From IMG/VR virus record IMGVR_UViG_3300030329_004250, positions 1 to 56,363 of that record: a DNA stretch of 56,363 bases, one strand, 5' to 3'. The stretch comes from a virus (taxonomy: Duplodnaviria; Caudoviricetes). How positions within the stretch are numbered: position 1 is the stretch's first letter; every line of letters begins with the position of its first letter. Below the pieces are notes generated by a model that saw only the letters and a program-made list of their open reading frames with translations, had not been told where the DNA came from and did not search any database. The position numbers and the translations under genes were made by a program. Shown piece by piece: positions 15,648 through 43,854 of this stretch.

Positions 15648-15649
15648 AT

Positions 15650-18823: not shown

Positions 18824-18824
18824 T

Positions 18825-28414: not shown

Positions 28415-28445
28415 AAAAAAAGGGGCCGGGAATTCCCGACCCCCT
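28415..28445 (-). terminator. intrinsic terminator
   Basis: Minus strand GGGGTCGGG-AATT-CCCGGCCCC followed by T7. Confidence 0.85.
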
Positions 28446-28517
28446 AATCTACTACTAAGTGAAGATTTGAACCTGGATTGAACCAGATGATGCATTGAAC
28501 TTAGATGATGTAGACTA
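28445..28517 (-). repeat. structured non-coding element, copy 1 (core 28455-28504)
   Basis: Minus strand CTAAGT-TCAATGCATC-ATCTGG-[TTCAAT]-CCAGGT-TCAAATCTTC-ACTTAG; outer stem TAGTCTAC/GTAGATTA starts at the upstream stop codon. Confidence 0.8.
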
Positions 28518-28844
28518 TTCTTCTTTTTGAGTTTCCGGGTTCCACTTAACCCATCCACGGTCAGGTAGCCAATTGCCATCGGCATCTTTCCGCTTTGGAA
28601 ATAGCCCGCCACCCTTCTTGTGACAACCAAATGCTAGTTTAGCACCACAGTCTAGACAACGTACTTCATAGTATTCGTTATCCTCAACCTGACGCACCAC
28701 AAACTTGACATTTGTTGATCCACATTTTCCACAGGTTGTTTCGTCAAAAACTTCCTGAAAGGCCGCGAGTTGCCCAAATAGATCTCTCTGGGTTTCCCCT
28801 TCAAGTTCTACTGACATTTTACCTGTGTTGTAAGTAACTTTCAT
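28515..28844 (-). CDS. zinc-ribbon protein
   Basis: CGKC...CLDC pairs; 109 aa; coupled to the annealase gene. Confidence 0.7.
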   Translation of the reverse strand: MKVTYNTGKMSVELEGETQRDLFGQLAAFQEVFDETTCGKCGSTNVKFVVRQVEDNEYYEVRCLDCGAKLAFGCHKKGGGLFPKRKDADGNWLPDRGWVKWNPETQKEE

Positions 28845-29552
28845 TTAGCTTCTCCAGTTTTCTTGATAACCTAAGACTTCTTGTGGAATTTGTGATTCTT
28901 GGCGAGATGCACTATTTAACATTTCTATTATTGTGGACGCCTGCTTTTTTGTTAATCTCTCTATTCGATCATGTCTCTCCCCGTTGGAATTCACTAATCT
29001 CATAACATCTACATTTAGTTGCTTACATTTGGCATTCATGAACTTAATTTGGTTCTCAGTTATTGAATCATCAACTGAGATATTGCCTGTTGCTTTTACC
29101 TTTACTTTTAGTTTATCAGAAATTTCTTCCGCAGTGCATACTTTGAGTTTCAAGGCTTTTCGTAGGGCACGACCTTCTGCCCGTGTAGATGCAGTAGCTA
29201 AAGCAAACACGATAAAATTATCGTCAATATTGCCAGATTGCCCGTCGTTGAAAACATCAGCGACATCTGCATAAGTACGTTCTGAACCATCCCACCACCT
29301 AAACGTGATAGAATAAGATACGGTAGCTCGCCCAATACCATTGCCCATTACCGGAAAAACTTCAGTAGGTTTACTATCTATTATATCCCCTAAAAGCAAT
29401 TCACCAACTCGCCTTAATCCATCAGCTTTGGGATATCCTTCATTTAGTTCCGTCTCATCTAGTAAAGACATGACAAATGGATGCCAATGAAGAGAAAGAT
29501 AGAATGCGCGTTTTTGTTCGTTATCAAGTTCAGCAAATTCTTCAAACGTCAT
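28845..29552 (-). CDS. Rad52/Sak-like single-strand annealing protein
   Basis: ATASTRAEGRALRKAL helix after beta strands; C-terminal TENQ...LTKKQAS..I motif typical of SSAP tails. Confidence 0.6.
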   Translation of the reverse strand: MTFEEFAELDNEQKRAFYLSLHWHPFVMSLLDETELNEGYPKADGLRRVGELLLGDIIDSKPTEVFPVMGNGIGRATVSYSITFRWWDGSERTYADVADVFNDGQSGNIDDNFIVFALATASTRAEGRALRKALKLKVCTAEEISDKLKVKVKATGNISVDDSITENQIKFMNAKCKQLNVDVMRLVNSNGERHDRIERLTKKQASTIIEMLNSASRQESQIPQEVLGYQENWRS

Positions 29553-29554
29553 AA

Positions 29555-30337
29555 TTAAACCTCGATTTCTATTAGCCTGTTTTCTTCATCTGGAAACGAG
29601 TCAGCAATTTTGTCTAATTGTTCTACGATACTATCAAGCACAGTTCTCATCTTTTTTTGAGATAGACTTTTAGTCATTTGCTTGACACGAATTAAAACAT
29701 AGCCTTCATTGATTAGCAAGCCTGTTTTTACGGCATCGGACTTCTGATGTTTTTGAAGACTTTCTACTCCCCAAATAGGCAAGAAATGTGACGGACCATC
29801 AATCTCAATAGCCGTTTTAATATCGGAAATATAGAGATCAACCTCCAACTTATTATCTGGAATTAGGTTTCTCTCGTGAAATCTAACAGTCCAGCCTTGT
29901 TCTGTCAAGTTCTTTCTGAGGAATCTTTCCGTTTTTGATCCCTCTGTAGCAGCCTCTCTGACCGCCTGTGCCGCGAGACTTCTAAGGTTCTGCTTCTCCT
30001 CCTCAGACATCGCCAACCAGTTGTCTTTGCTGATCTGAGACAGCCTCTCGCGTTCCTCGTCAGACGTTTCAGACCATGCCTTAGCCCGTCCCTCACTTAC
30101 TTTGAATTTGTGGTCCTCTGTAAGTTTAGAACCTTTCTCAATTGGTGGTTTACTCCTACCTCTTTTAAGAGCTAACTTTTGAGCTTCTGAATAGTCTCTT
30201 TTTTCCGCCCCTAGAAACTTTAGTGCTCTCAAAATCTTAGTTGAGTAAGTACCAAGGTTTTCCGCTATTTCGTAACTGCTACAACCCTCTTCATGCATTC
30301 TCAAGATCTGCTCTTTATTTTCTCTGGCAAATCTCAT
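29555..30337 (-). CDS. putative free-standing endonuclease (HTH + NUMOD3-like + DUF559/Vsr-like nuclease)
   Basis: N-terminal SSYEIAENLG HTH; TEDHKFKVSE repeat-like segment; E...VDLY...AIEIDG.SH. Confidence 0.7.
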   Translation of the reverse strand: MRFARENKEQILRMHEEGCSSYEIAENLGTYSTKILRALKFLGAEKRDYSEAQKLALKRGRSKPPIEKGSKLTEDHKFKVSEGRAKAWSETSDEERERLSQISKDNWLAMSEEEKQNLRSLAAQAVREAATEGSKTERFLRKNLTEQGWTVRFHERNLIPDNKLEVDLYISDIKTAIEIDGPSHFLPIWGVESLQKHQKSDAVKTGLLINEGYVLIRVKQMTKSLSQKKMRTVLDSIVEQLDKIADSFPDEENRLIEIEV

Positions 30338-30788
30338 AAATCTTCTCCAGGTTAAAATCCTCGTCTATACCATCTACTTCTACATTGAAGTTATTCTTTA
30401 TTATATCTGCTTGTAGCTGACTACGAACAATTTTTTTAATCTTTGGGTTCGACAATATGTTGTACACACCATAGAAACTAAATGGATGACTCATCCAGTC
30501 CATTTGCCAAATGTAGAAACATTTATCTGAATTTACAGATGTCTTATTCATAACATCTGCCCCATCCAAAGATGTTGCAACAACAAGTCCATTATTGAAA
30601 TGCGCTATATCGCTAATATTGGAATACGCAAAGAAAGTATCTATAACCTTATGGCTTATATTTGTTAAAAATCCACAGATTTCATCATTGTGAGTATTTA
30701 CAAAACTATTTATTTTATCCATCAAAGTATAATTTTTATCGCTCTTGATAAAATCGTCGAATATTACGCCTATTTTCATTCTACCCAT
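30315..30788 (-). CDS. hypothetical protein, possible glycosyltransferase-like fragment
   Basis: 157 aa; VVATS...KCFYIWQMDW resembles GT-B N-terminal domains; last gene of the GT cluster. Confidence 0.45.
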   Translation of the reverse strand: MGRMKIGVIFDDFIKSDKNYTLMDKINSFVNTHNDEICGFLTNISHKVIDTFFAYSNISDIAHFNNGLVVATSLDGADVMNKTSVNSDKCFYIWQMDWMSHPFSFYGVYNILSNPKIKKIVRSQLQADIIKNNFNVEVDGIDEDFNLEKIYEICQRK

Positions 30789-31216
30789 CCTGAAATAAAG
30801 TCACTACATATTCCCATGTAATCACCGTTTGTGATTATGGTATTTTCTTCCGGCAGCATTATAATAGATTTTGGAAAAATTGATCCAGCATATGAAAGTA
30901 CAAAATTACGATTGGTCATAATTAAGTTATCCGATTCACGCCAGAAACAGTGGTATCCCTCTTTTAAAAGACGTAAGAGTGCTGTGGGGTTTCTAGCTTG
31001 AATTAGTAACTTCTCTTTATCGAATACATTTAAGTTAATCCCAGTAGAAGGGTGGTCTGTGCCTGTAACGGTTTTGTCCTTTATGACCCAAATATCAGTC
31101 TTAACACATACTCCAGCTTCTAAAGCTTTTTCGAGATAATCTGGCTTGTTCTCTTCATCGGGATCTTTGCCGCCAAGATTACCTCTATTAGAAATATAAA
31201 TCTTTTGTTCTTGCAT
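30776..31216 (-). CDS. GDPD/PLC-like phosphodiesterase-fold protein, degenerate active site
   Basis: ISNRGN...EEN...AL..G...KTDIW...GTD...GICSD aligns with HRG...EN...E-x-D...HD...SD, with His/Glu substituted. Confidence 0.6.
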   Translation of the reverse strand: MQEQKIYISNRGNLGGKDPDEENKPDYLEKALEAGVCVKTDIWVIKDKTVTGTDHPSTGINLNVFDKEKLLIQARNPTALLRLLKEGYHCFWRESDNLIMTNRNFVLSYAGSIFPKSIIMLPEENTIITNGDYMGICSDFISGWVE

Positions 31217-31964
31217 TTATTGTACTCTTGCATTTTTGTGCGGATTTCTTTAAACCTAATTTATTGAAAATATTCGCCCACTCTACAAAAGGATTGTACT
31301 TTTTAATTGTATCGTTTCTTATCTCGCTAATATCTTTAGCTTCATTGTTTATTAGATATTCTGCTTTTTGTTCAAAATCTTCTTGAGAATCAAAAACCAT
31401 TTCTTCTGGAAGATTTGAGTCTTTAATATTTGTTAGAGGTGTGCCGCCAGATTCTAATATGCGATATAGTGAATATTTGTCTAATGCAATGTTTACTTTT
31501 GAAGAGGCGTATAAATCGCCAGCATTATTTTCCGGGATTGTGCCACAATAATTAAATGTATTTATAGGCTGTTTTGAGAAAATCTTAAATCTATTTTTCA
31601 ACCTAATAAATTTAGTTACTAATTGCAACAAGTTTGGATCTGGATTGTTCACTGACATGTCGCATTTTAATTCGTCTCTGACTTGACCTTTACCAATTAG
31701 TATACAACATTCATTTATTTTATATGAAACATTGTTATTTACAAATGAAATACTAAAATCTTCTTCTACTTCCTGATTTGGGTTATTATAGTTTTCAATC
31801 TTAATACCATCTATTTTTGGTATATCCTTTTTAAATTCAAAATCATAAACTAAAATATCACATGGTTCAATTGTATTGACAGCCTGTACATCATAGCCCG
31901 CATGAACCAAAGTAGAGACAAAACCTATTAGATCTTGATTTTTTGATATGACATTTATCTTCAT
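31188..31964 (-). CDS. glycosyltransferase-like protein (GT-B C-terminal type)
   Basis: LYASSKVNI...YRILESGG...F.S.EDF..K..YL pattern. Confidence 0.5.
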   Translation of the reverse strand: MKINVISKNQDLIGFVSTLVHAGYDVQAVNTIEPCDILVYDFEFKKDIPKIDGIKIENYNNPNQEVEEDFSISFVNNNVSYKINECCILIGKGQVRDELKCDMSVNNPDPNLLQLVTKFIRLKNRFKIFSKQPINTFNYCGTIPENNAGDLYASSKVNIALDKYSLYRILESGGTPLTNIKDSNLPEEMVFDSQEDFEQKAEYLINNEAKDISEIRNDTIKKYNPFVEWANIFNKLGLKKSAQKCKSTINARTKDLYF

Positions 31965-32653
31965 ATAACATCCTTCATTGAATGTACTTCTTTTATTTTG
32001 CCTTTTGGCGACTCATAATAGGCTATCTTATGTCTGCCTTTTATTAACTCATTCATGAATTCAAATGATGACATGTTATTATCGGCAGTATTTAACTTAG
32101 TTTTTATGTAGTTAAAAATAAATTTTGGGAAAAACGCTATTTGCGACCACTTATCTGGTAAACCATACGAAAAATTTTGTACATGTTCGGTATCAGTTAT
32201 AACGCCAACAGCAGTTTTATCAAGTCTGCAATTCTTATCAATAGGTACACAAATATTATCTTGAGACGGTGGTTTTATAAAACTCTGCGAAAAGATCAAA
32301 TCACCATGAATAAAAAATACATTGCTTTCTAGACAAGCATTTATACCCTTTTTCATGCTCTCGACTATGTGCGTAGAATCAAAAAATGGGTTTTCTACTA
32401 ATCGCAAGCCTTGTACATCTCTTATTACTTTATCAGACATGTACCCTGTAACAAGAACTATATCTGTATTTGCGCCATATGCTAATTTAATAGTTTCAAC
32501 TTGATGGTCTATAATTCTTTTATTGCCATAAGGTATTAGAGATTTATTGCCATAATTTTTTGTTCTACGTCCAGTACCAGCACTTAATATAATAAATGTA
32601 TTATTATCTGATGTTCGCCTAGTGCCTGTTATATATCTAGTTTGTCGTGACAT
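31961..32653 (-). CDS. sugar/phosphocholine nucleotidyltransferase (NTP_transferase family)
   Basis: IILSAGTGRR....NKSLI, VTGY, ENP.F, HGDLIF motifs. Confidence 0.8.
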   Translation of the reverse strand: MSRQTRYITGTRRTSDNNTFIILSAGTGRRTKNYGNKSLIPYGNKRIIDHQVETIKLAYGANTDIVLVTGYMSDKVIRDVQGLRLVENPFFDSTHIVESMKKGINACLESNVFFIHGDLIFSQSFIKPPSQDNICVPIDKNCRLDKTAVGVITDTEHVQNFSYGLPDKWSQIAFFPKFIFNYIKTKLNTADNNMSSFEFMNELIKGRHKIAYYESPKGKIKEVHSMKDVI

Positions 32654-33128
32654 GATATAAATCTAGTGGTATATACTTGACTATCCCTTGGCACTTTGAT
32701 AAATCAAATAAATCATCTGTATTCTCAAGTCTTCTGCAAGCCACGATTGGATTATTTTGGATCATTAGTACGTCGTCAATTGTATAATCGCAAACTGTTG
32801 CAAAGATATTTCCATCTTCCATTGGGGAAAATAGTTTGTCTACTACATCTTTTTTTGGAAAAGATTGTTTATTAAAAAATAAGATAGCGTTACACTGTTT
32901 TTCAACAGCGGTTCTAATAGCTATGTTTAACCCCTCATTTCTCTCTTCGAAATCCAACCCAATAAAGGAAAAGTCATCCTCGCTGTAAGATCCTTCGGCA
33001 TTATGTAATCCGTTGTCGAAGAACAAAGTAACTTTATCAAAAGCCGTTTTAGTGGCATCCATGAATTCTTCGATAGTATCATTTGATGGTTTATCAGAAC
33101 CAAAGTCTTTAGAGACTAGTATCTTCAT
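32637..33128 (-). CDS. hypothetical protein, weak GT2-like
   Basis: RNEGLN.A......ILF segment resembles GT-A, but there is no DxD. Confidence 0.4.
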   Translation of the reverse strand: MKILVSKDFGSDKPSNDTIEEFMDATKTAFDKVTLFFDNGLHNAEGSYSEDDFSFIGLDFEERNEGLNIAIRTAVEKQCNAILFFNKQSFPKKDVVDKLFSPMEDGNIFATVCDYTIDDVLMIQNNPIVACRRLENTDDLFDLSKCQGIVKYIPLDLYHVTTN

Positions 33129-33813
33129 TTATATCTTCCCATGTAAAGATCATGCTATCTATCTCTTGTTCCTGCTGTGATTCCACAAGCTTATCTTTAA
33201 AAGATACATCTTTGTTGCCTTTTAGCATTTTAAAGATTACGTTATTGACTACAAACGGCGAATTTTCAATAAGGGCCAACCTGTTCATTTTTATGTTGAT
33301 AAACTCATTTACTTTATCTAAATCTTCTTTCGAAATTTTATCATCTTCATGTAGTACTATAGTGTATCCATTTTTTATCTTATTAAACGTGTCGTCCATG
33401 TATTCAAATACTGTCTTTTTTTCCTTGAAAGAATTTGTTATAAAATAGTTGGGCTTATTGCCGATTTTTAAACTCAATGCTTTAAAGTTTTCTTTAGTTG
33501 CTAGGCACACGCGATTGTCTTCTGTAACAAGATTCTCTATAGAATCAAGTATAGAGAATGTTTTATCTATGTCTGTGTCAACAATTATAAAGTGAAATCT
33601 GATATATTTTTCTTTTAGTATTTCTGCTTTTGTTTTATCTTCCGTGGTTCTAAAATTACAAATTCTATCAAATTGATAATCACCGTCTACTATTTCACAC
33701 TTTGAAGACTTTGTTTTTATTGTTTCTAATATACCAAGTTGACATGAGGTTTGTTCTTCATTTTCTTTTACATTGAATGTGCAGTCTTTGCAAGACATGC
33801 CTATTTTTGACAT
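33109..33813 (-). CDS. hypothetical protein with N-terminal Cys cluster
   Basis: Start moved to MSKIG (GAGGAG SD); CKDC...C.LG...C N-terminus. Confidence 0.65.
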   Translation of the reverse strand: MSKIGMSCKDCTFNVKENEEQTSCQLGILETIKTKSSKCEIVDGDYQFDRICNFRTTEDKTKAEILKEKYIRFHFIIVDTDIDKTFSILDSIENLVTEDNRVCLATKENFKALSLKIGNKPNYFITNSFKEKKTVFEYMDDTFNKIKNGYTIVLHEDDKISKEDLDKVNEFINIKMNRLALIENSPFVVNNVIFKMLKGNKDVSFKDKLVESQQEQEIDSMIFTWEDINEDTSL

Positions 33814-35450
33814 AACCAACTCTCCTCTGGAAACTGTATATTTCCAATTCTCGCATTTTCCCAAAAGTTTTTATTCTTAGCTTTTTCTCTAAACATGTTT
33901 ATTATATCGTCACGAGTAAGCGGTCTATAATTTTCTCTGTTAAAGATGGACATCTCCCCATAGAAGAAGCCACCGGGATTATTCTTAAACTGTTGAAAAT
34001 TGAAATCTCTTAATATTTTATTAATGCTGTAACTGTTGAGCATCTTTGGTTCATTGACAACATGCATAACTAAAAAGTTAATTAAATCTTTATTGTTCTC
34101 AGTCTGTGGGATGTCGGCATCTGGTCTTCCAAACTCTGTAGCCATATCCCATGTGCCGTAATCTAGTTCATCAATACACTGTTCCCAGATTTTAGCTGTT
34201 TTATCCCATCCATAATTTTTCTCAAATGCGGCTCTTGTTTTCTTCCTATCTTTAACTCTAAGAGCTTCTGGTTTAGGTAGTAACTTTTCCCATAACTCTA
34301 TGATATGTTCATGATCTGGTAAAGCGCGGTAACAACCAGTTTCCATTTCTAAATGTTTTGATCTTAGCTTAATTGGATAACCCTGAAGCTTTCTTACTTC
34401 ACTCTCCATAGCTGAGTAATCAGTTGCCATAACTGGAACACCACAAGCCGCCGCTTCTACAATGGGCAGACCAAATCCTTCGCTATTGGCCGGTTGGATA
34501 TAAACATCAAAAAGATTGTAAATATAAGATAAAGTCTTTGTGTCTACACCATCGCCAACATTTGTTAGTTTTGAACCAAACTGGCCACATTTTTTACATG
34601 GGATAACTGTATCGGAAAATCTTTGACATGATGCTGCACCACACGCAGCGCATAAATATGTAAATATCACTCTAGAACTTATTTCATTTTCAAATAAATA
34701 CTTGGGCAAGTCCCATCCATTATCTGGGTATGAAGTATGACAATACAGGTACGTATTAGTATCGCCAGTCTTTTTAAGATACTTACCAAATGCCTCGAAA
34801 AGTTCTGGAAATAACTTTCGACGCTGATTTCTCATGACTGTGCCGATAATCTTCCATTCGGGATTTATCCCCATTTTTTCTTTATGAGCAGTTTTATTTG
34901 GAACTTCTGCAAAATCTTCCGATGCAGATGGTGGTGCAGCACATTTCACATTCATTCTATCAGACTGGGATTTTAGAACATCCACAGCCCAATCAGAGTA
35001 TGTGAGCACAATGTCAGCATCTGAAAAAGAGTCGATCCACTCTTCATTCTGTGGTGAAGCATCCACAGTTGGCATCCATACCCATTTAAAGCATTTTCTT
35101 AATGGGGAATGCTGAATAAAAGCGTCCATCCACCAGTCACGGATGGTAAGTACAACATCTGGTTTAAAGTCTAAACAGGCTCTGTCAAATCGCCACTTAC
35201 CAAACTGATTAAGACCGTCTTTACCATAAATTTCGTTTTGTTCTTGATTTCCCGCTTGCGGCATATTTGGATAATTTTTCCAAGGGATGGTGCCGCGATC
35301 TTTATGGTCCTCTGTGCCATAAGTTGAGAATTCTGCTAGTTCGTACTTCCCAGTAGCATGAAGTCTTTTTAGTACTTCTCTGCTATATGTCGCATATCCA
35401 GTATTTAAATAACTAGCTTCAGAAACGAAAAGTACTTTTTTTTTATTCAT
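33801..35450 (-). CDS. GT4-family (GT-B) glycosyltransferase with Zn-ribbon insertion
   Basis: TGYA, RNQRRK, EGFGLPIVEAAACG motifs; CAAC...CKKC insertion. Confidence 0.9.
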   Translation of the reverse strand: MNKKKVLFVSEASYLNTGYATYSREVLKRLHATGKYELAEFSTYGTEDHKDRGTIPWKNYPNMPQAGNQEQNEIYGKDGLNQFGKWRFDRACLDFKPDVVLTIRDWWMDAFIQHSPLRKCFKWVWMPTVDASPQNEEWIDSFSDADIVLTYSDWAVDVLKSQSDRMNVKCAAPPSASEDFAEVPNKTAHKEKMGINPEWKIIGTVMRNQRRKLFPELFEAFGKYLKKTGDTNTYLYCHTSYPDNGWDLPKYLFENEISSRVIFTYLCAACGAASCQRFSDTVIPCKKCGQFGSKLTNVGDGVDTKTLSYIYNLFDVYIQPANSEGFGLPIVEAAACGVPVMATDYSAMESEVRKLQGYPIKLRSKHLEMETGCYRALPDHEHIIELWEKLLPKPEALRVKDRKKTRAAFEKNYGWDKTAKIWEQCIDELDYGTWDMATEFGRPDADIPQTENNKDLINFLVMHVVNEPKMLNSYSINKILRDFNFQQFKNNPGGFFYGEMSIFNRENYRPLTRDDIINMFREKAKNKNFWENARIGNIQFPEESWLCQK

Positions 35451-35913
35451 TTACTGCTCTTAACTTATTATAAAATGACCTGACTTTAGCTTTATAGTCC
35501 TTTTTTGACATATCCAAAATATCCCTAATTTCCATATCTTTGTAATTTGATCTTTTGTAGTAAAAGATAGCTTGTTCTTCAATATCTAAATCATCTGGCA
35601 AAACTTCATCTATAGCTGTTTTATCATAAGTTGTAAAACTGCCTAGAAAGTCGCTTAATGCTATATCTCTGTTTTTGTTCTGTTTTTTAATAAACTTAAT
35701 TAGATCATTTCTAATACAGAAAGTAGCAAATGTAGAAAAGACACTTCGGCTAGGGTCGTGCTTCCTATATGCTTTAAGCATTGACATTAAAGCCACTTGT
35801 ATTATATCCTCAAAATCATAATTATGACCGTGAGAATAAAACTTACGGGCTAACGAAATCGCTAACCCGTAGTTTTCATTTATAAAATCATTTTCAGTAT
35901 TCTTCATCTGCAC
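35443..35913 (-). CDS. sigma-70-family RNA polymerase sigma factor (short, regions 2+4)
   Basis: DFEDIIQ.A...L.A...DP...FSTFA..CIRN; C-terminal HTH; ATG at 35907 is a likely start. Confidence 0.8.
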   Translation of the reverse strand: MQMKNTENDFINENYGLAISLARKFYSHGHNYDFEDIIQVALMSMLKAYRKHDPSRSVFSTFATFCIRNDLIKFIKKQNKNRDIALSDFLGSFTTYDKTAIDEVLPDDLDIEEQAIFYYKRSNYKDMEIRDILDMSKKDYKAKVRSFYNKLRAVNE

Positions 35914-36211
35914 TCGTCTGTAAGTTATTGACTATCTTAAATTCATTGACTCTAAAAGTTACTTTACCGTTACCGCTACGTGCTGTACAGTTTACCACCA
36001 AAGAGTCTCCTACTTCACAATGGTCATAAATAGTTTGCGCGCCACTGTCCCATGCTTCAAAGAATAGGAAGTTCCTATCTCTAATTTTCTGACCGCTTTT
36101 ATTTTTGCGGTACTTATCAATTGACATTTTAAATCTAAGAACTTTCGTGTTGAATTCTTCTGAGATATTCATGTCTTCAGCAATACGTCCAAGAAAAACA
36201 CAATTATTCAC
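35894..36211 (-). CDS. ssb: single-stranded DNA-binding protein
   Basis: MNN.VFLGR..D ... F.AW...A.....GD OB-fold signature; acidic tail ADEEY. Confidence 0.8.
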   Translation of the reverse strand: MNNCVFLGRIAEDMNISEEFNTKVLRFKMSIDKYRKNKSGQKIRDRNFLFFEAWDSGAQTIYDHCEVGDSLVVNCTARSGNGKVTFRVNEFKIVNNLQTSADEEY

Positions 36212-36215
36212 AACG

Positions 36216-36485
36216 CTACCTCTTTTTAGTTAAGGAGTTAAAACGCGAAAAAGCTTCGTTATAGTTATGATACTGTTCAATAACCTCTTTTGATCCTTTA
36301 TTTGATTTGTAGATCTGTATTCGAGGTTTTTCTATATCATATCGACTACGAGAACGAGAGCGAAAAAAGAAACGTAGATCACACATTTCTACGTCATATT
36401 TTTTTATAATACAACCATCAAGCAAGACTTTCTTATAGTAGTCCACTTGGTTTAAGAGATTGGTTTCCCAGTTTTGATCAGTCAT
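36216..36485 (-). CDS. hypothetical protein
   Basis: 89 aa; ATGA overlap with the DnaE C fragment. Confidence 0.65.
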   Translation of the reverse strand: MTDQNWETNLLNQVDYYKKVLLDGCIIKKYDVEMCDLRFFFRSRSRSRYDIEKPRIQIYKSNKGSKEVIEQYHNYNEAFSRFNSLTKKR

Positions 36486-38014
36486 ATCTGATTTATTTCG
36501 TTTACGATGAACGAGTTTCGGTCCCTAGCACGCTGACCAAACATTAAGACTGTAGCGGTCTCATATATTATATCCTGATACTGATGATATATGTCAGGAA
36601 AAACGACAACATTTTCAATTTCTACAGAATCGTCTCTAACTGATAGAAATGCCATCTTGTCTTTGTTCTTGGTCGTGTGCTCTTTTACTTGAGTGATTTC
36701 AACAGCTAGTATACTTTTATTCTTCTTACCGTCAAGCACTTCTTTGCAGGTCGTGTTGGCGAAACTAGCGTCAGCACAGCCATCTACTTTTGAGTAAGAG
36801 ATAGGGACACCAAGCAGGTTTTCTTCACTAATTGAAATCGACATGGGATTGTCTTTTAATGATCTGCCGGGATTTTCTAATCTATTAATTATATCTGAAA
36901 ATGCTTCTAGTCTTTTGGTCGTTGCAACAGCACCGCCGTCTTTTTTTAATCTATTCAGGTTTATGAGATTATCTTTTAAAGATAGGGAGGAATCTACTCT
37001 GTCTTGCAGGGTCTCCAATTCTTTCTTACTCAGATCTTTTATGCAAGAGAATTCGTGGGTCATTTCTGATCTTGACTTTTTCAGTCCCGCGAAGAATCCA
37101 ACTGCAATAAGATTGTTTACCGCCCTTTTATTTACATTGGGTAAAATGTTCACTACATATTCTACCCAGGTTTTTGGTTTTAGTTCGTTAAGAAAATCCT
37201 TGAGTTTGATGAATTCATTTACTCCAACATTTTTGACATTGGTTATGCCGAAGTAAATGTCCCTATCCTGTATAGAGAAGTTTGATTCTGGATATTCATG
37301 TAGGGGTGTTTTTACGTTGATATGGTCTAACTTGGCACTCTCTACAAGTTCATAAATTTCCTGATTGGGATCGATTTTTTCTTTTGCATTTGACAGCCAG
37401 TGAAGATAAAACTCCAACTTTTTATTAGCTTTTAAATAGGCAGACCAGTACGCCATCAGTGCATACGATACTGCGTGTGATTTGTTGAAAGAATACCGGT
37501 TAGACTTTTCGATAATATCAAAGATTCTATCAGCATCTTCTTGTGTATGTCCTTCTTTTAGGCATCCTTCAATGAACTCACCTTTGACCTGACGCATGAG
37601 GTCAGCTTTTTTCTTACCAATCGCTTTTCGCAAAGTATCAGCTTGTGACTCTGTGAAGCCAGCCATGACCTGTGCAATTTGCATAGCTTGTTCTTGGTAA
37701 ATGATAATATTATAGGTTCTGGAGATTACCTTGTCAATAGGTTCGTACAGACTTTTAGTTTCTTCTATATTATGTTTTCTGTCCACGTACCTTTGGGTCA
37801 TGGACTTCCCGTCTTCGATAGCTTTTAGTGTACCGGGACGGATGATAGAAATAACGTCAGCCAGTTCCTCGATATTGCGGGGTTTAGCCTCTTTGCACCA
37901 ATGTTTACCAAGATGAGTTTCTAACTGGAACACGCCTTTGGTATGACCGGAACAAATCAAGTCCCAAGTTTTTTTGTCTTTAAGATTGCATTTTGTGATA
38001 TCAATAGTGTCCAT
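36482..38014 (-). CDS. dnaE: DNA polymerase III alpha-like, C-terminal fragment (fingers, HhH, OB)
   Basis: TKGVFQLE, IRPG, IIYQEQ.MQIA, LRKAIGKK, YSFNKSHAVSY, MAFL OB fold; GGAGG SD before ATG 38014. Confidence 0.92.
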   Translation of the reverse strand: MDTIDITKCNLKDKKTWDLICSGHTKGVFQLETHLGKHWCKEAKPRNIEELADVISIIRPGTLKAIEDGKSMTQRYVDRKHNIEETKSLYEPIDKVISRTYNIIIYQEQAMQIAQVMAGFTESQADTLRKAIGKKKADLMRQVKGEFIEGCLKEGHTQEDADRIFDIIEKSNRYSFNKSHAVSYALMAYWSAYLKANKKLEFYLHWLSNAKEKIDPNQEIYELVESAKLDHINVKTPLHEYPESNFSIQDRDIYFGITNVKNVGVNEFIKLKDFLNELKPKTWVEYVVNILPNVNKRAVNNLIAVGFFAGLKKSRSEMTHEFSCIKDLSKKELETLQDRVDSSLSLKDNLINLNRLKKDGGAVATTKRLEAFSDIINRLENPGRSLKDNPMSISISEENLLGVPISYSKVDGCADASFANTTCKEVLDGKKNKSILAVEITQVKEHTTKNKDKMAFLSVRDDSVEIENVVVFPDIYHQYQDIIYETATVLMFGQRARDRNSFIVNEINQI

Positions 38015-38186
38015 ACAAGCAAACCTCCGCATCAACTTTTTGAATTACCCATTTTTTAATTGTACGGGTCGTCCCGTATTTTTCAAGACTGATTCCACGA
38101 ATGAAATCTCTCCAATACTGTGTCTCTATATCTTCTGGACTTTTTTCTTTAGTTTTTCTATTGTTGGACCACTTAACCTGTTCCAT
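38001..38186 (-). CDS. possible small hypothetical protein
   Basis: 61-aa ORF filling the gap but overlapping both neighbours; no recognisable motif. Confidence 0.3.
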   Translation of the reverse strand: MEQVKWSNNRKTKEKSPEDIETQYWRDFIRGISLEKYGTTRTIKKWVIQKVDAEVCLYGHY

Positions 38187-38824
38187 AATTGTAAGCCGCT
38201 CCTGAATTCTATATAGTTCACCGATACAGCGAAGTCATTATACTTTGCATCTATTTCTTCGTTAGGTATAATAAAAGAGTAGATTTTGATCTTGCCCTTT
38301 GAATCTTCAACCAGCATACTTTTAAAAAACTCATGTGGCACAACCACATCTTCACCAATTTTAGAAAATGGTTTGGTGATATCGAACACGGGTCCGCTGA
38401 TAGAATAAACCTCTACCACATTTTCTTTAAGAGCCATTGTCCTAGCTTCTTCTTCTAACATCCTCCAAACTTTACGATTTAAATCTGGATGTTGCGGAGC
38501 CATGTTAGACATTAGAAATGTTTCACTATTTTCCAATCTGCTCGAATTCCGATCCGCAGAAGGCACCAGATGCCCCCTATCGTAGCCTGAACCGCGATAA
38601 TCCGCTAGACTGCACCGGAAGGTTTCTGGGATTCTCAAGTCCGGTCTGAAGCAATCCTCGCGGTCTACAGAGACATCCTCTGCCTGACCGTCAATAATGT
38701 GCATGGACCATCTTGGTTGCCGGAATAAGTAGGAATAGCCGATCAAATAATTCCGGTTTGGAAGGATCTGATCGGCAGTTGGCATACCGTATCGTGTTTG
38801 TGGGAATAAGCTTGGTATTTCCAT
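38126..38824 (-). CDS. DNA/RNA non-specific endonuclease (NucA/EndoG-like)
   Basis: SGYDRGHL, TFLMSNMAPQ..LNR..W..LE, VP.EFFK motifs. Confidence 0.92.
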   Translation of the reverse strand: MEIPSLFPQTRYGMPTADQILPNRNYLIGYSYLFRQPRWSMHIIDGQAEDVSVDREDCFRPDLRIPETFRCSLADYRGSGYDRGHLVPSADRNSSRLENSETFLMSNMAPQHPDLNRKVWRMLEEEARTMALKENVVEVYSISGPVFDITKPFSKIGEDVVVPHEFFKSMLVEDSKGKIKIYSFIIPNEEIDAKYNDFAVSVNYIEFRSGLQLWNRLSGPTIEKLKKKVQKI

Positions 38825-39504
38825 TAGGCAAAAGCTCCTTTAAACTTTTTGTTATATACAAATCTTCTAAACATCTTCATGGTTCTACAGAATAACTCAG
38901 CAGTCATGAGAACATCACTAAGTGCATCATGGGCCTCGCCTTGTGAGTATCCCATGTAACCACGCACTAGGTTATCATTAGATAGTGAATTAACCTCTTT
39001 GTTATTTTCAAAACAGCAGAACATCAAATCTAATGTGTCCACTATATTAATTGGATTGAATAAAGACTGCCGCCTACCATCTTTATCTTTTGGTCCGTAA
39101 CCCCAAGGTTTTTCACAACAAATCCTGTGAACAATCGGCATGTCAAACCCGCGAATATTATGACCAACCGCAATTGGTGCATACCAAGGGGTCTTTTTAA
39201 AATTGTATTCATTCACATAATCAGTGAAGTTTGACCAGACTGATTTTAGTGATGGAGCCTTCTTGAGCATGGCTTCGGTTTTACCATGAACAGCGACAGC
39301 ACCATCTTCAAGAACATCGACTCCAGCTTTAGCACATTCTTTCTCGTCGAAGATAGGCTGGATTAAAGATTGGAATTCTGAGTTAGGTATGACCTCCAGC
39401 TTCCTGCCGTGAATCGCCACAGCAGCAATTTGCACTGGCTGAGTGGTATCTGGATATTTGCTCGTAGTTTCAAAGTCGAAAACAATGTAGTCTTTGTAAT
39501 TCAT
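38824..39504 (-). CDS. DEDDh 3'-5' exonuclease (DnaQ/epsilon-like)
   Basis: VFDFETT, GHNI.GFD, AHDALSD motifs. Confidence 0.9.
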   Translation of the reverse strand: MNYKDYIVFDFETTSKYPDTTQPVQIAAVAIHGRKLEVIPNSEFQSLIQPIFDEKECAKAGVDVLEDGAVAVHGKTEAMLKKAPSLKSVWSNFTDYVNEYNFKKTPWYAPIAVGHNIRGFDMPIVHRICCEKPWGYGPKDKDGRRQSLFNPINIVDTLDLMFCCFENNKEVNSLSNDNLVRGYMGYSQGEAHDALSDVLMTAELFCRTMKMFRRFVYNKKFKGAFA

Positions 39505-39524
39505 AATAATCCTTTGTAAGAAAA

Positions 39525-39599
39525 TGGGGCGTCTAAGTGAAAGCGTGAATCTGGATCGGCATTACCGCCCAGATAATTACCTAAACTTAGATCACCCCA
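39525..39599 (-). repeat. structured non-coding element, copy 2 (core 39533-39590)
   Basis: Minus strand TGGGGTG-A-T-CTAAGT-TTAGGTAATT-ATCTGG-[GCGGTAATGCCGAT]-CCAGAT-TCACGCTTTC-ACTTAG-A-CGCCCCA; its TAA is the DnaE middle-fragment stop. Confidence 0.8.
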
Positions 39600-40429
39600 C
39601 ATGTTTCATGTATTTTCTTTAATAAATTAACACCAAGGATGTCGAACTTGACAGCACCAATAGCCTCAAGATCACCCATTTCCATCCCCGCGATTTTTTC
39701 ATTACCGCGAGTTTCTTTGACCATAGGGCATAGATTATTCAGATCTATAGATGATACTACCACACCAGCGGCGTGTTTTCCTTGAGTTTTGAATGTTCCT
39801 TCAATTCTAAGAGCTTGGGCAAAATCTCTAGCAAAGTCGCCGTGTAATTCACCATCTTCTTCCCAACAGTATTCTCTTAGTGTATCCGGGTCATTTTCCA
39901 AGGCCCATCGAATAACTGATGGCTCATCCATTTCTTCTAATTTATCAGAGATTGCAGCTTCTTGCGGAATCTTATTTGTGATATCGTTCATCTGGTCGAA
40001 TGAGCAACTCTCATTAACTCTTAGAACTTCTTTTAATGCGGATCTACCTTGGAGTCTACCAAACGTCAGCATCTGGCAAACCCTATCTTCTCCGTATTTT
40101 TCTTTTAGATAGATGATGACATTCTCTCGTTGGTCTGGCGGGAAGTCAACATCAATATCTGGTAATGACGCTTTTGCTTCCACAAAAATTGTTGGAGCGT
40201 TTTCGTCCACGCTCTTGACTTTATCATAAATCCACATGATGTAACTGTTTTTAGGATTATCTGATGATAAATCAATATTGTTTATTATATGTTTATAATA
40301 TTCCTTTCCTTTTTTCATTTTCAGAACTACGTTCATTTCTTCCTGAAAATGATTGTTTTCGGAAACTCGATTAAACCGTTTTTCATTTGGAAGTTTACCA
40401 AAAAATGTTTCAAGTTCTGTAATATTCAT
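39587..40429 (-). CDS. dnaE: DNA polymerase III alpha-like, middle catalytic fragment
   Basis: SLPDIDVDF, YL.EKYG, TFG, GKHAAGVV, KFDILG (all three catalytic Asp). Confidence 0.92.
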   Translation of the reverse strand: MNITELETFFGKLPNEKRFNRVSENNHFQEEMNVVLKMKKGKEYYKHIINNIDLSSDNPKNSYIMWIYDKVKSVDENAPTIFVEAKASLPDIDVDFPPDQRENVIIYLKEKYGEDRVCQMLTFGRLQGRSALKEVLRVNESCSFDQMNDITNKIPQEAAISDKLEEMDEPSVIRWALENDPDTLREYCWEEDGELHGDFARDFAQALRIEGTFKTQGKHAAGVVVSSIDLNNLCPMVKETRGNEKIAGMEMGDLEAIGAVKFDILGVNLLKKIHETCGVI

Positions 40430-41342
40430 TAACCTTGTCCCATTTACGATTTAGTTTTATAGTGTTTTCGTCAAAGGTGTTAAGTTTGGTTAAAATCTCC
40501 AAAACGTCATTTTTTGCTGACCATCGTACATCGTACAGTTCTTGATTTTTTTTCTTGTATATTCTTTTACTCTTAAAACCAAGAGTGTCACACACTTCTG
40601 TTAGTGTGTCTTTTAAGTAGGAGCAAGCGCCTATATTTGGGTAACGATATTCTTTTCTGTATCTTTTATTATATGTAGTTTTAATTCCGACCCATCCATC
40701 AGCATCTATAAAACCACGAATAAAATCGTATTGATGTGTTTTTGGCACTGGTATGATCTGATCATAAGTTTTTCTGTTGATGATTCCATTATTTTTTAAG
40801 TTATCAACTAAATATGGATTCGTTACTCTTAATAAGCTCTTGGTTTTATATTTATAAACCCTATCCACCCCATAGATATAGTTAGACAGTTTTATCAGAT
40901 GACCTTCATCCTTCTTTGACAAACATACTTGCAAATTCGTATAATTTTTATCAACTGACCCGTCACCAAAAATAAATCCCAACCAATACGAGGATTCTGG
41001 AGTTATCTCAGAAAAGTTATTAATGACATCAAACCTTTTATGCTCTATAAAACACTGGTGTGAGCAGTACTTAGCTTTTCTACTTGGGGATCTTTTAACT
41101 ATTTCTTTACAATTTAGACATCTGATCTCTTCTTTTATAGAAACCATTTGTTTTCTAATTGGGCACCATTGACTACAAGATTTTATTTTTAGTTTTTTCA
41201 ACTGCTGTATTTGAATAGTTCTCTTTTTTCCACAATCACAGATACAATCAACCACCTGTCTTCTATGACTGCCGCAGCCGTATTCTTCCAAGTAGTAAGG
41301 GGTAGATATTACTGTTAGTAAATCATATTTAGTGTTCTTCAT
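40410..41342 (-). mobile_element. free-standing double-motif LAGLIDADG homing endonuclease gene
   Basis: YWLGFIFGDG and FIRGFIDADG motifs; N-terminal CICDCG and CxxC/YCS..C modules; lies between two dnaE fragments. Confidence 0.85.
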
Positions 41343-41383
41343 TTTTAAACCTTTAGTAGTGGGTATAAAACTCTCCGTAATAG

Positions 41384-41392
41384 TTATACACC
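41384..41392 (-). promoter_or_regulatory. candidate promoter GGTGTATAA inside a hairpin
   Basis: Same 9-mer as 4142-4150, about 42 nt before the LAGLIDADG ATG. Confidence 0.45.
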
Positions 41393-41402
41393 CAAACTGG
41401 GT

Positions 41403-42716
41403 CTATTTGAAGTTTTCCAGATAATTTAATTCGTCAAATGACACATGTTTTTCGTATGATCTACTATTATTATAGAAACGACTGAATACCAACCCGTACT
41501 CAATGGGATCAATTAAGGTAATACCTATTAAATAGGAAATGAGACATCCTGCGGCACTGCCACGACCTGGCCCAACCAGAACACCCCTGCGGCGGAACTC
41601 GTTTACATAATCCGCAACAATGAGGAAGTAGCCTGAAAGATCCGCATCTTCGATGACTTCTAACTCTTGAAGAATTCGATCTTTGTAAATTTCTATATCT
41701 TCTTTTTCGTCAACCTTGCCGGTGGGCATGAGAACATTCCTCCACCCATCACGACAAAGCTGTTTTAGTTCCTCGATCTGAGATTTATTTTTGGTTTCAA
41801 CTTGCGGCAGTCTTGGTTTAGCCAAGATCGTATAAGCTGAACATTTCTTATTTATCTCACCAACGGTTTTAATCTGGTCTTTTGAATATGTTTGCACTTC
41901 TTCTTTACTAGGAATATAGTAAGAGTTAGACTTGAAATATCTAACATACCTATAATTGTCTTCTTTTAGAAGGTCTTTATTAACCTTATTTAAAGTTGTT
42001 CTCATCTTGGAACATAGCAAAACTCTATGATCTTTTGAGTCTGCCATTTCTCCGTAATAAATATTTGCTCCAGCAAGAAGGTTTTTAAAACCAATACTGT
42101 CAGCAACTTCATCGACACAGTTAGAGATCAATTTAGTGGCGGCAAAAGTCTCAGAATCTAACTTATTTATTTCAAGGTAGTAATCATCACCAAACTTTTC
42201 TGTGAACTTACTAATGTGTACAACAGCGTCTTCTTTGTATTCTCTCTTTAGGCACTCACCAGCCTCGTCGTATTCTGAACAACTATAGATACATTTGTTA
42301 TCTTCTATAAACTCGTTGAATAATGCACTGCCAACGTAACCATCTATGCAGATGAAGTTTTCATCAACAAGTTCAAACAGTTGATCTATAGGAATAGCCG
42401 GATGTTTCTTGAAATTATCGGCATCATTACATGCTGATACTATTTCAAGAAGTTTAGCCCAGCCCTTTTCGTTTTTACAGATCAGCGTGACTGTGGTATT
42501 GTTGGATGTTTTGAGAGGTATTTCACAACCAAGAATTGGCTTGATGTCATTATCTTCGCACTCCTGCACAAACTTGACAGCACCCGATACAGAAGCAAAG
42601 TCAGTCAGTGCCGCAGTCTCATAACCAAGTTCTTTACATATTTTTACAATTCTTTTAGGCTTGAGGGTTGACTGTAGTAGAGAATAGTGCGAATGTATTC
42701 TGGTTGGGAACCACAT
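41403..42716 (-). CDS. dnaE: DNA polymerase III alpha-like, N-terminal fragment (PHP + first palm segment)
   Basis: HSHYSLL, ALTD, IKPILGCE, YFLIVAD, VGPGRGSAAG, DP..YGLVFSRF. Confidence 0.92.
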   Translation of the reverse strand: MWFPTRIHSHYSLLQSTLKPKRIVKICKELGYETAALTDFASVSGAVKFVQECEDNDIKPILGCEIPLKTSNNTTVTLICKNEKGWAKLLEIVSACNDADNFKKHPAIPIDQLFELVDENFICIDGYVGSALFNEFIEDNKCIYSCSEYDEAGECLKREYKEDAVVHISKFTEKFGDDYYLEINKLDSETFAATKLISNCVDEVADSIGFKNLLAGANIYYGEMADSKDHRVLLCSKMRTTLNKVNKDLLKEDNYRYVRYFKSNSYYIPSKEEVQTYSKDQIKTVGEINKKCSAYTILAKPRLPQVETKNKSQIEELKQLCRDGWRNVLMPTGKVDEKEDIEIYKDRILQELEVIEDADLSGYFLIVADYVNEFRRRGVLVGPGRGSAAGCLISYLIGITLIDPIEYGLVFSRFYNNSRSYEKHVSFDELNYLENFK

Positions 42717-43766
42717 CTACTTATCCTTTTCAACTCTGTCTTCTGCTAATCGACCACCACCGTCACCATACTTTGAAATCTTTGAGATATCGCCGTATTG
42801 CTCGATGGTCTTTACAATTCCTTGAGATTTTACCATATCTCGGAAGAAATGGCAAGTGGACTTTCCAGAATTTTCCCATTCTTCCGAAAATTTGCACAGA
42901 TATTTACATTTCCAGTGTGTGTTTTCTGATGATAAAAGTCTGGGCTGTTCAACGGACCTAATATACTCAAACTTTTGTCTCAGTATGTCTTCTGCCTTTT
43001 GGTAATCTTCTTCATCGAAGACCATGCTAAACAAACCACCCGGAACATCCACCCCATCTATCTTTGAGTCATTAATATAATAAATGCTAACAAAGAATTC
43101 CCAATCCGGATACATATTCTTAAGGGCGTAGTAGTACAGAAGAAGCTGAGTGTCTTTCTGTAGTTTTTCTGGGGTTTTGATTTCTCCAGTCGCCCAATCA
43201 ATCCGTTTGCCGGTTTTATAATCTAATACCTGAAAGTACTTATCGTCTTCTTGGGTGATTAAATCTATAGTTCCTTTAATAGATAAATACCCTTCGATTT
43301 TTTCCCCGCCTACATCATAACTATATTTTGCCCACGGTTTCTTGATTTCAATATCAAAGAATAATTCCGTAGCATGGACATTTTGATTTCTTGGATCTAG
43401 CTCACCGTCATTGTATGCTACCGCTTTCTGGACCCATCTTATGCAGGTTCTCAGGTCTGCTTTGGTTAGTTCGACCTCTGGCTCATGTTCTGCATAGTAG
43501 TCAAAACATAATTCAGTTATGTGCGGTAGGTCATCACATTTTTTGTAAGATAGGTTGGGGATATCATCATTGATAACCTTACCGACCTTGTTCTTCTGCG
43601 CCAGATTCTTGTCTGCCAATAGCTGCAATGCGCGATGAACAACCGTACCAAGAAGTGCCTTCCTGTTGGTTTTATCGCGTAATGACAGATTGTATTGGAG
43701 AAAGAATTTCTGTTCACAAAATTCTAACTGACCAAGTGAACTAGATCTGTGGTAGCATACTAACAT
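42717..43766 (-). CDS. Cas4/RecB-like PD-(D/E)XK exonuclease
   Basis: SSS....FC, GT.VH, GTIDL, DYKTG, QL..Y, C-terminal CKYLC...C. Confidence 0.8.
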   Translation of the reverse strand: MLVCYHRSSSLGQLEFCEQKFFLQYNLSLRDKTNRKALLGTVVHRALQLLADKNLAQKNKVGKVINDDIPNLSYKKCDDLPHITELCFDYYAEHEPEVELTKADLRTCIRWVQKAVAYNDGELDPRNQNVHATELFFDIEIKKPWAKYSYDVGGEKIEGYLSIKGTIDLITQEDDKYFQVLDYKTGKRIDWATGEIKTPEKLQKDTQLLLYYYALKNMYPDWEFFVSIYYINDSKIDGVDVPGGLFSMVFDEEDYQKAEDILRQKFEYIRSVEQPRLLSSENTHWKCKYLCKFSEEWENSGKSTCHFFRDMVKSQGIVKTIEQYGDISKISKYGDGGGRLAEDRVEKDK

Positions 43767-43783
43767 AATTGCTCTTATAAATT

Positions 43784-43854
43784 ATCGAGGGGTCTAGGTA
43801 AGGTGTTGAACCCGGACTAAACCGGATGACGACTTGAACCTAGATCCCCTCGAT
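43784..43854 (-). repeat. structured non-coding element, copy 3 (core 43794-43843)
   Basis: Minus strand ATCGAGGGG-A-T-CTAGGT-TCAAGTCGTC-ATCCGG-[TTTAGT]-CCGGGT-TCAACACCTT-ACCTAG-A-CCCCTCGAT; its TAG is the dNMP kinase stop. Confidence 0.8.

Follow-up and report, generated by a model that had tools for sequence, protein, structure and literature searches.

Hairpins with hypervariable loop centres at gene ends in one clade of uncultured marine tailed phages

Introduction

Why does a tailed phage carry the same two-fold symmetric hairpin behind several different genes, and in which nucleic acid is the hairpin read? This question is raised by the IMG/VR virus record IMGVR_UViG_3300030329_004250 (Duplodnaviria; Caudoviricetes), whose 56,363 bases (hereafter, the window; estimated to be 37% complete) contain three such hairpins in the minus-strand replication arm. 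A preliminary description, made from the letters alone, had reported these three copies at stop codons and had suggested a folded single-stranded signal, for which an mRNA processing or control site, an attC-like recombination site and an opposite-strand box C/D-like RNA were named as candidates. The observation is real and considerably richer than first noted, and what we infer about function draws on sequence comparison. Association with terminators, hypervariability of the loop centres, and gain and loss of copies are new beyond the preliminary description.

Three copies of the hairpin in the replication arm

The structural arm of the phage is on the plus strand and includes a 2123-amino-acid tape measure protein, and the minus-strand arm from 28141 upward carries replication and nucleotide-metabolism genes. 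The hairpins and the terminator that follows the first of them are as follows (N5, the 5-nucleotide (nt) centres of the two loop strands; ORF, open reading frame).

Copy 1 (locus type A), 28443..28516, minus strand: hairpin directly 3' of the stop codon of a 109-amino-acid Zn-ribbon ORF (28515-28844); N5 at 28495-28491 and 28467-28463
Intrinsic terminator, 28420..28445, minus strand: 11-bp G+C-rich stem and T run, immediately after copy 1
Copy 2 (locus type B), 39521..39602, minus strand: hairpin between the middle DnaE fragment (39587-40429) and an RNase T-like exonuclease gene (38824-39504); N5 at 39581-39577 and 39545-39541, then AUUUUCUU
Copy 3 (locus type C), 43782..43855, minus strand: hairpin between a dNMP kinase gene (43840-44604) and a PD-(D/E)XK nuclease gene (42717-43766); N5 at 43834-43830 and 43806-43802

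The three copies were found on the minus strand where they had been reported. Each half pattern (5' and 3') had exactly three matches with 0 mismatches in the window, and all other matches needed 3 mismatches, for which the chance expectation (at ≤3 mismatches) was 1.84 and 1.09, respectively. With a covariance model (R1) built from 13 sequences, copies 1, 2 and 3 scored 69.3, 64.4 and 81.4 bits; the model detected no further copy in the window and one divergent copy (38.6 bits) in a related record. The ORF ends agree with the stop codons given earlier: TAA at 39587-39589 (copy 2) and TAG at 43840-43842 (copy 3) each lie inside CTAR of stem 1, and TAG at 28515-28517 (copy 1) is the start of the outer helix. 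Since the stop codon is positioned elsewhere in other locus types, it is not a defining feature of the element.

Note that copy 2 is aberrant within its type. Its apical loop is 14 nt long and contains a mini-hairpin, and its 5' loop strand is edged by TTA/TT, compared with a 6-nt apical loop and TCA/TC edges in the remaining eight type B copies; copy 2 may be a decaying or variant copy. Contigs of X5 and X10 join 39517 to 39600 across copy 2 with intervening letters that are not known, and this joint is not interpretable.

A family of 47 distinct hairpins in eight locus types

The full two-half element was present in 4 of 25, 7 of 12 and 12 of 12 stretches returned by three pattern scans of IMG/VR. 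A scan of metagenome contigs, the long ones of which reach 61–128 kb, gave 48 stretches, 40 with model hits and 8 that were chance matches. Pattern scans and the covariance model together extended the three original copies by many more, to a total of 47 distinct 74-mers, among which the covariation described below holds. All copies came from marine or estuarine assemblies, as judged by the run labels. They were sorted by their flanks into eight locus types:

Type A: 12 copies (window copy 1)
Type A2: 6 copies
Type B: 9 copies (window copy 2)
Type C: 5 copies (window copy 3)
Type D: 7 copies
Type E: 4 copies
Type F: 3 copies
Type G: 1 copy

Five copies are located on a single 44-kb contig. The spacing between copies is 1–11 kb, and each is behind a different gene.

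At gathering thresholds, Rfam 15 gave 0 matches in the whole window. In E-value mode with copies 3 and 1, the top-scoring families, mir-331 (19.6 bits) and L20_leader (25 bits), stayed below their thresholds of 80 and 58.7 bits, respectively. A bacterial or other cellular origin was rejected, as 185,579 species genomes gave just 7 pattern matches, all scoring ≤20.6 bits with the model. A tRNA-like origin was likewise rejected: ARAGORN finds no tRNA gene in the window, and the likeness to a T-arm fails across copies. Megablast of 7 kb retrieved no cultivated relative, and the best tblastn match of DnaE was 30% identical. Full-text literature searches, whose scope did not extend to the supplementary locus tables and array figures of the TIGR paper (cited below), returned no account of the hairpin motif. 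The elements are a strongly supported, undescribed structured family of ~75-nt hairpins, which is confined, as far as searched, to one clade of uncultured marine tailed phages.

Conserved fold, covariation and strand preference

On the minus strand, each window copy folds into an outer helix, a 6-bp stem, a 10 × 10 internal loop, a second 6-bp stem and an apical loop. The minus-strand folding energies of copies 1, 2 and 3 were −18.8, −40.4 and −36.7 kcal/mol (z −3.2, −7.5 and −7.2), and those of the opposite strand were −13.4, −31.1 and −38.7 kcal/mol. The conserved module consists of stem 1 (CUARGU/ACYUAG), loop strands UCA-N5-UC on both sides, stem 2 (AUCYGG/CCRGAU) and a small apical loop.

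Covariation of both stems, which had been proposed from three copies, was borne out in the 47 distinct sequences. Standard pairs filled 97.5% of 564 stem cells in an alignment that was fitted to the model, which favours structure. Two-sided changes were seen at four of the 12 pairs, in 38 cells; one pair, for instance, is A-U in 22, G-C in 18 and G-U in 7 sequences, and another is U-A in 30 and C-G in 13. In 500 shuffles, neither the pairing nor the covariation score was ever equalled, and only 3–56% of cells were paired once the register was slid. In types F and G, stem 1 reads CGCGGU/ACUGUG or CACGGU/ACUGUG and is still paired, partly via G-U. Likewise, the outer helix comprises 6–16 pairs in every copy with a sequence that is unrelated between the eight locus types, as the preliminary description had noted for the window copies; together with stem 1 it forms a lower helix of 13–23 bp.

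Stem mismatches had been described as G-U on the minus strand, and this is mostly the case: among 552 cells of 46 sequences, the non-Watson-Crick cells on the sense strand were 31 G-U, 9 A-C and 4 other. The sense fold was the more stable one in 32 of 47 copies (mean −29.3 vs −26.2 kcal/mol for antisense). Seven of the eight locus types are sense to an ORF ending within ~40 nt; this was seen in 37 of the 40 copies of those types, and the other three have too little upstream sequence for the ORF check. The remaining type D is placed in a divergent intergenic region, oriented with the operon that it precedes, with no upstream sense ORF and with a U8 tail. It is far more stable in the sense direction (about −33 vs −17 kcal/mol) because of its many G-U pairs. 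The preference for the mRNA-sense strand is thus real but not absolute, and the suggestion of a folded single-strand signal is supported on that strand.

Placement at predicted transcript ends

A U-rich tract or a separate terminator was found behind 41 of 47 copies. Specifically, a separate canonical terminator follows within a few bases in 18 copies (types A and A2), including 12 of the 12 type A copies; in 23 copies (types B, D, E and F), the hairpin's own G+C-rich outer helix runs directly into a U-rich tail; and the tail is weak or missing in the other 6 (types C and G). The claim that the copies lack a U-tract of their own is correct for copy 3 only: copy 2, the only window copy with its own U-rich tail, continues into AUUUUCUU, and copy 1 is followed by the canonical terminator at 28420-28445, 3' of which is the last ORF of the minus-strand arm. 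In types A and A2, termination is not the hairpin's own job, since a separate strong terminator is right behind it. Of the four type E loci scanned, three (L078, L055 and L080) have a tRNA-Met gene ~10 nt past the end of the copy. Adjacent tRNA-Met (CAT) and tRNA-Ile (TAT) genes are located directly downstream of type E at L078:3906-4056, L055:2259-2410, L073:7503-7653 and L080:746-1282.

A reading of the element as a promoter was not supported; a promoter consensus scan gave 64 promoter-like sites, no more than in shuffles (61.6). In L050, L057, L059, L060 and L064 (type A relatives) and in L063, L073 and L055 (type D), stem 2 and the apical loop together read TGGTATAAT or TGGTAAAAT, an extended −10-like word. 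This word is not conserved family-wide, its key second base varies, and we read its presence in some relatives as a probable coincidence.

Loop centres change faster than silent sites

The symmetric loop with conserved edges and variable centres, reported from three copies, extends to the whole family. There were 44 distinct loop pairs, all with 10-nt loop strands and 5-nt variable segments on both sides, and UCA-N5-UC was seen on both strands, no conserved position having more than five exceptions. When divergence was pooled over ortholog pairs, the loop edges differed at 3.8%, the stems at 7.0%, the outer flanks at 22.6%, the upstream 300 nt at 16.4%, the downstream 300 nt at 29.4% and N5 at 60.7% of positions. 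The first four N (N4) are the hot positions, and the fifth N is mostly specific to the locus type.

We compared the divergence of N4 with that of 4-fold degenerate sites in the flanking ORFs. Pairs with 0/99 differences at 4-fold sites (2 pairs) had 0/16 at N4; at 8/194 (4.1%; 4 pairs) N4 differed at 18/32 (56%), and at 15/229 (6.6%) it differed at 21/32 (66%). At higher 4-fold divergence, N4 remained at a plateau near 65%. With Jukes-Cantor correction, N4 turnover was roughly 25-fold above that of 4-fold sites. On the other hand, stems and loop edges were far more conserved than silent sites at eight loci, indicating selection on sequence and not only on structure.

The N4 differences in 19 close pairs comprised 29 transitions and 60 transversions, which is the random ratio of 1:2, and those of the flanks comprised 82 and 52. 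The random-like ratio points to replacement or saturation at N4 and not to a small number of ordinary point mutations. The two loop centres vary independently, and their mutual pairing (74 of 176 positions vs 66.8 ± 5.7 in shuffles) showed neither preference nor avoidance, so that quasi-palindrome template switching has no support. Copying of centres between loci was also rejected as a source, since only 2 five-mers were common to different locus types and ~4 are expected by chance (rough count). No complement of the six loop strands (12-mers, ≤1 mismatch) was found elsewhere in the window. Among close pairs, 0.39–0.52 also show linked differences in stem 2 and the apical loop, and part of the N4 signal may therefore be exchange of a central 32-nt block. 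The turnover of the centres could reflect diversifying selection on a specificity, a mutational process acting locally, or very frequent micro-exchange that starts from the conserved core and draws on a large pool of copies.

Gain, loss and exchange of copies

Copy 3 is absent from relatives that are 5–10% diverged. In G001, only 15 nt separate the genes on both sides, compared with 85 in the window, and the kinase ORF ends three codons sooner; in the X6 and X10 contigs, 87 nt are replaced by 18, joining 43768 to 43856. This is not a clean core insertion, because the outer helix is missing too. L073 retains a type E copy as a 3' half alone; from the apical loop leftward, ~1.1 kb with a methyltransferase ORF is found in place of the rest.

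There are also signs of exchange around and between copies. Two related records differ at 34 of 10,705 positions, and 21 of these fall in a 560-nt stretch that surrounds the type B copy, with 8 in the copy itself; several of the flank differences are three bases apart, as imported silent changes would be. L081:115-188 (type A2) and L053:525-598 (type B), on the same 44-kb contig, have almost identical cores, in which one loop centre is identical and one near-identical. This pair is a clear case of central-block exchange between two loci and a sign of recent conversion between paralogous copies in one genome.

A candidate RNA module for transcript 3' ends

What could such an element be? Taking the observed structure, strand preference, placement, family size, hypervariability, and gain and loss together, we infer transcription as a stable RNA, a protein partner and a function as follows. 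Our preferred reading, to which we give tentative credence, is a transcribed 3'-end RNA module that would be bound by a two-fold symmetric protein, would have spacer-like loop centres, and would also serve as a recombination junction. Covariation, the sense bias, orientation with transcription units, and coupling to U-rich tails or terminators all point to a transcribed module at 3' ends. Conservation of stems and loop edges in a two-fold repeat points to a symmetric, probably dimeric reader. Specifically, the module would be transcribed with the genes and fold on the mRNA-sense strand, either immediately after a stop codon or where an operon starts. As most copies run into a U-rich tract or are placed before a separate terminator, it would be the last structure on phage transcripts. 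The predicted dimeric protein would read the conserved stems and loop edges, and the complex may act on RNA 3' ends: it could process or protect them, release a small hairpin RNA, or control read-through. The 4–5-nt centres, fixed in length, would either not be read or would carry a specificity under diversifying pressure. As a by-product, the conserved core would provide a junction for recombination and for insertions and deletions between related phages.

Several points weigh against this module reading. Among the listed runs that contain the stretch, none is recorded as RNA. A plain protein-binding site does not explain centres that change ~25 times faster than silent sites, and the pairs behind this rate estimate overlap and are not phylogenetically independent. 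The antisense fold was more stable in 15 of 47 copies, and the 9 A-C cells would read G-U on the opposite strand. A DNA-level element would account just as well for gain and loss and for the conversion patch. As for a partner, the neighbouring genes differ at every locus, and six-frame Pfam searches were negative. The Nop model (PF01798) gave 0 hits in G000 and 0 in G001-G005 (fragments, 12–37% complete); note that the discoverers of TIGR systems needed a custom Nop profile, and a divergent Tas protein, missed by the Pfam model, may be encoded elsewhere in the genome. The IS110 DEDD and Transposase_20 models found nothing in five partial records each, and neither a tyrosine recombinase (PF00589; 0 hits) nor a Y1 transposase was found in 5/5 related partial records. 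A phage RNase III gene was also missing from the five or six partial records searched. The homodimeric reader of the preliminary description thus agrees with the two-fold pseudo-symmetry of the element, but no reader protein was identified.

Other leads to a partner were weak. Sequence searches of the PDB with four unknown ORFs of 235–258 amino acids gave nothing below E = 0.1. In the ESM Atlas, one ORF had no named relatives and a weak annealing-protein lead, and another was glycosyltransferase-like. The genes beside the stand-alone type D copy encode a cupin, a glycosyltransferase and methyltransferases.

Guide RNAs, DNA sites and other explanations

One explanation that we regard as unlikely is dispersed dual-spacer guide RNAs of the TIGR, box C/D or bridge-RNA kind, in which the internal loop of each hairpin would present two short spacers to a symmetric Nop-like dimer and so direct it to a nucleic-acid target. 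In the main account of Faure et al. (2025, PMC12045711), TIGR stem-loop units have a variable palindromic stem, two spacers flanked by box C-like and D-like motifs, and a linker, and work with a symmetric Nop-domain dimer; the spacers are 8–12 nt long, the units form tandem arrays of mostly 5–15 next to a tas gene, and such systems are common in phages. The layout of our elements on the sense strand matches that of these units: a hairpin with a variable palindromic stem, two short variable segments with the same motif pair round each, a linker, and a pseudo-two-fold symmetry suited to a protein dimer, again in phages with several units per genome. The centres are of fixed length, hypervariable with a random-like spectrum and mutually independent, and type D stands alone with its U8 tail. 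However, the segments here are 5 nt long, the units are single and dispersed behind genes instead of standing in tandem arrays by a tas gene, and a conserved 6-bp hairpin serves as the linker. The motif pair here is UCA/UC, and that in TasR arrays is CCA/UG. The missing self-complements of the six loop strands in the window and the negative Pfam searches for Nop (six partial records), IS110 DEDD and Transposase_20 also speak against a guide. The TIGR units are the nearest architecture in print, but because of spacer length, the lack of tandem arrays and the lack of an adjacent Tas gene detectable with Pfam models in fragments, we do not file the elements as TIGR.

Archaeal box C/D sRNAs resemble the elements in one respect: on the antisense strand, the variable segments are flanked by GA...UGA, loosely in the order of the C/C' and D/D' boxes. 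The opposite-strand box C/D RNA once proposed is not supported, though. The antisense motifs are only GAUGA/GUGA and UGA, compared with RUGAUGA for box C and CUGA for box D; the spacing is 5 nt vs ~12; no 3-nt bulge for a k-turn is present; and Rfam C/D models gave 10.6–12.8 bits vs gathering scores of 39–50. Furthermore, pairing favours the other strand, and the phage has bacterial-type genes. A more specific version, in which the element would be a minimal relative of TIGR, bridge or box C/D RNAs, that is, a 3'-end hairpin with two fast-replaced 5-nt specificity segments with which phages would recognise kin or target the nucleic acid of competitors or hosts, is quite unlikely in our judgement. 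If a guide reading were true, the fast turnover of the segments would be an arms-race signature.

Another explanation is a site acting at the DNA level, with the hairpin formed in single-stranded DNA or its half-sites recognised in the duplex: a phage nuclease or recombinase target of homing, attC-like or HUH-like type, where cutting or crossover in the centres would drive both hypervariability and gene exchange. The presence or absence of copy 3 among relatives 5–10% diverged, the 1.1-kb insertion with its breakpoint exactly at the type E apical loop, the conversion-like patch of silent differences centred on the element, the partly block-like exchange of the central 32 nt, and the near-identical cores at two loci of one contig (L081 and L053:525) are all consistent with it. 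The phage also carries several nucleases (a LAGLIDADG protein, a sub-threshold DUF559-like protein, Endonuclease_NS and PD-(D/E)XK). We give this explanation little chance all the same, as orientation tracks transcription units, including in the reversed type D copies, G-U wobbles in the stems are common, and U-rich tails or terminators accompany 41 of 47 copies. A duplex operator is hard to reconcile with the variable loop length in copy 2 and with outer helices that covary; consistent with this, no homologue keeps the half-site without pairing.

attC sites, which are recombined by the integron integrase in cassette arrays, have R'' (RYYYAAC) and R' (GTTRRRY) boxes at their ends. The elements share with them an imperfect palindrome at gene 3' ends, the order of stem, unpaired spacer, stem and variable terminal loop, strand specificity, and gain or loss of copies with genes. 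In contrast, the ends here are ATCTARG and CYTAGAC or another locus-specific sequence, which do not fit the R''/R' consensus; the stem sequence and not only its structure is conserved; there is no cassette array; and the flanking genes are conserved replication genes. With no integron integrase or other tyrosine recombinase found in 5/5 records, the attC-like candidate is not supported.

As exchange junctions, the elements behave most like PeSLs, composite terminator/promoter motifs of T4-like phages (Comeau et al. 2014, PMC4122927; Arbiol et al. 2010, PMC2839356), which are the closest parallel for this behaviour. In both cases, a short conserved motif with a stem-loop is repeated at gene boundaries of a large lytic-type phage, and breakpoints of indels and gene swaps coincide with the motif, as in the copy 3 absences and the L073 insertion. 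Unlike PeSLs as summarised in these sources, the conserved part here is a covarying twin-loop hairpin and not a promoter with a simple stem-loop; promoter-like sites do not exceed shuffles, and the TGGTATAAT word of some relatives varies at its second base. Hypervariable loop centres are not mentioned in the abstract of PMC4122927.

It is improbable, too, that the hairpins are ordinary terminators or host RNase III sites of the T7 type, conserved through descent by duplication and with unconstrained centres. RNase III sites of T7 are intercistronic mRNA hairpins with a lower and an upper stem round an internal loop, present at several gene junctions and cleaved by RNase III within or beside that loop. 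The intercistronic placement, the long lower helix (13–23 bp), the U-rich tails of types B, D, E and F, and the two stems round an internal loop would fit such signals. The likeness to T7 sites is limited to placement and two-stem shape; the loop here is large, symmetric (10 × 10) and conserved at its edges, the upper stem is just 6 bp and the centres are hypervariable. Moreover, types A and A2 have their own strong terminator behind the hairpin, the eight loci show far stronger conservation in stems and loop edges than at silent sites, and lack of constraint cannot yield a ~25-fold excess over 4-fold sites.

Finally, a selfish miniature palindromic element (MITE-, REP- or Correia-like) inserting in terminator hairpins or gene ends without a phage function would account for many dispersed copies with a conserved core, for their gain and loss, and for a core that appears embedded in terminator-like stems, but it is very unlikely, given that orthologs persist with nearly invariant stems and loop edges where 4-fold sites differ by at least 40%, that the locus-specific outer helix is absent from empty sites with no clean footprint or target duplication, that no transposase was found, and that the species genomes contained no bacterial copies beyond the 7 low-scoring pattern matches.

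If the element is what its sequence suggests, it would represent an undescribed family of structured phage RNAs with a rare property: two tiny patches of fixed length, in a strongly conserved fold, that change ~25 times faster than silent sites. Such a pattern is otherwise seen where short sequences set specificity, as in guide spacers, incompatibility loops and crossover regions. The hairpins would offer a ~75-nt object for asking how phages mark or process transcript ends, and they bear on guide-like RNAs outside arrays and on conserved hairpins that seed modular gene exchange among marine phages. Even on a modest reading, RNA family databases would gain a new, well-supported motif that has 47 distinct members.

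Gene context and additional observations

The gene for DnaE, whose middle piece ends at copy 2, is split over three ORFs, 41403-42716, 39587-40429 and 36482-38035, which match profile positions 45-440, 440-614 and 623-1055, respectively. The first gap holds a LAGLIDADG ORF, and the second holds the RNase T-like exonuclease and Endonuclease_NS genes. The arrangement at the second split (window 36482-39586, minus strand; profile 614/623) is kept in 9/9 type B loci. The intervening sequence at the first split (window 40176-41484, minus strand) is 1309 nt long and contains a two-domain LAGLIDADG ORF (40410-41342). The X5 and X7 contigs join 40175 to 41485 with 24 other letters between, which by arithmetic restores one reading frame and therefore indicates that an insert-free DnaE allele circulates. 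An intact intein was ruled out for this insert by frames and stop codons, and Rfam detected no group I intron at it.

About 1 kb upstream of copy 1, a 260-amino-acid ORF (29555-30337, minus strand) has weak matches to a helix-turn-helix and to DUF559 (Vsr-like endonuclease), below Pfam cut-offs; it could encode a free-standing homing-type nuclease. In the plus-strand arm, a 2370-amino-acid ORF and three preceding ORFs (514, 1057 and 539 amino acids), at 20458-27570 and 14103-20444, have no PHROG match, and the structural arm of the phage is mostly unrecognisable to profile search. A 156-amino-acid ORF (35443-35913, minus strand) matches phage sigma-factor families, suggesting that part of the phage's transcription is probably under its own sigma factor.

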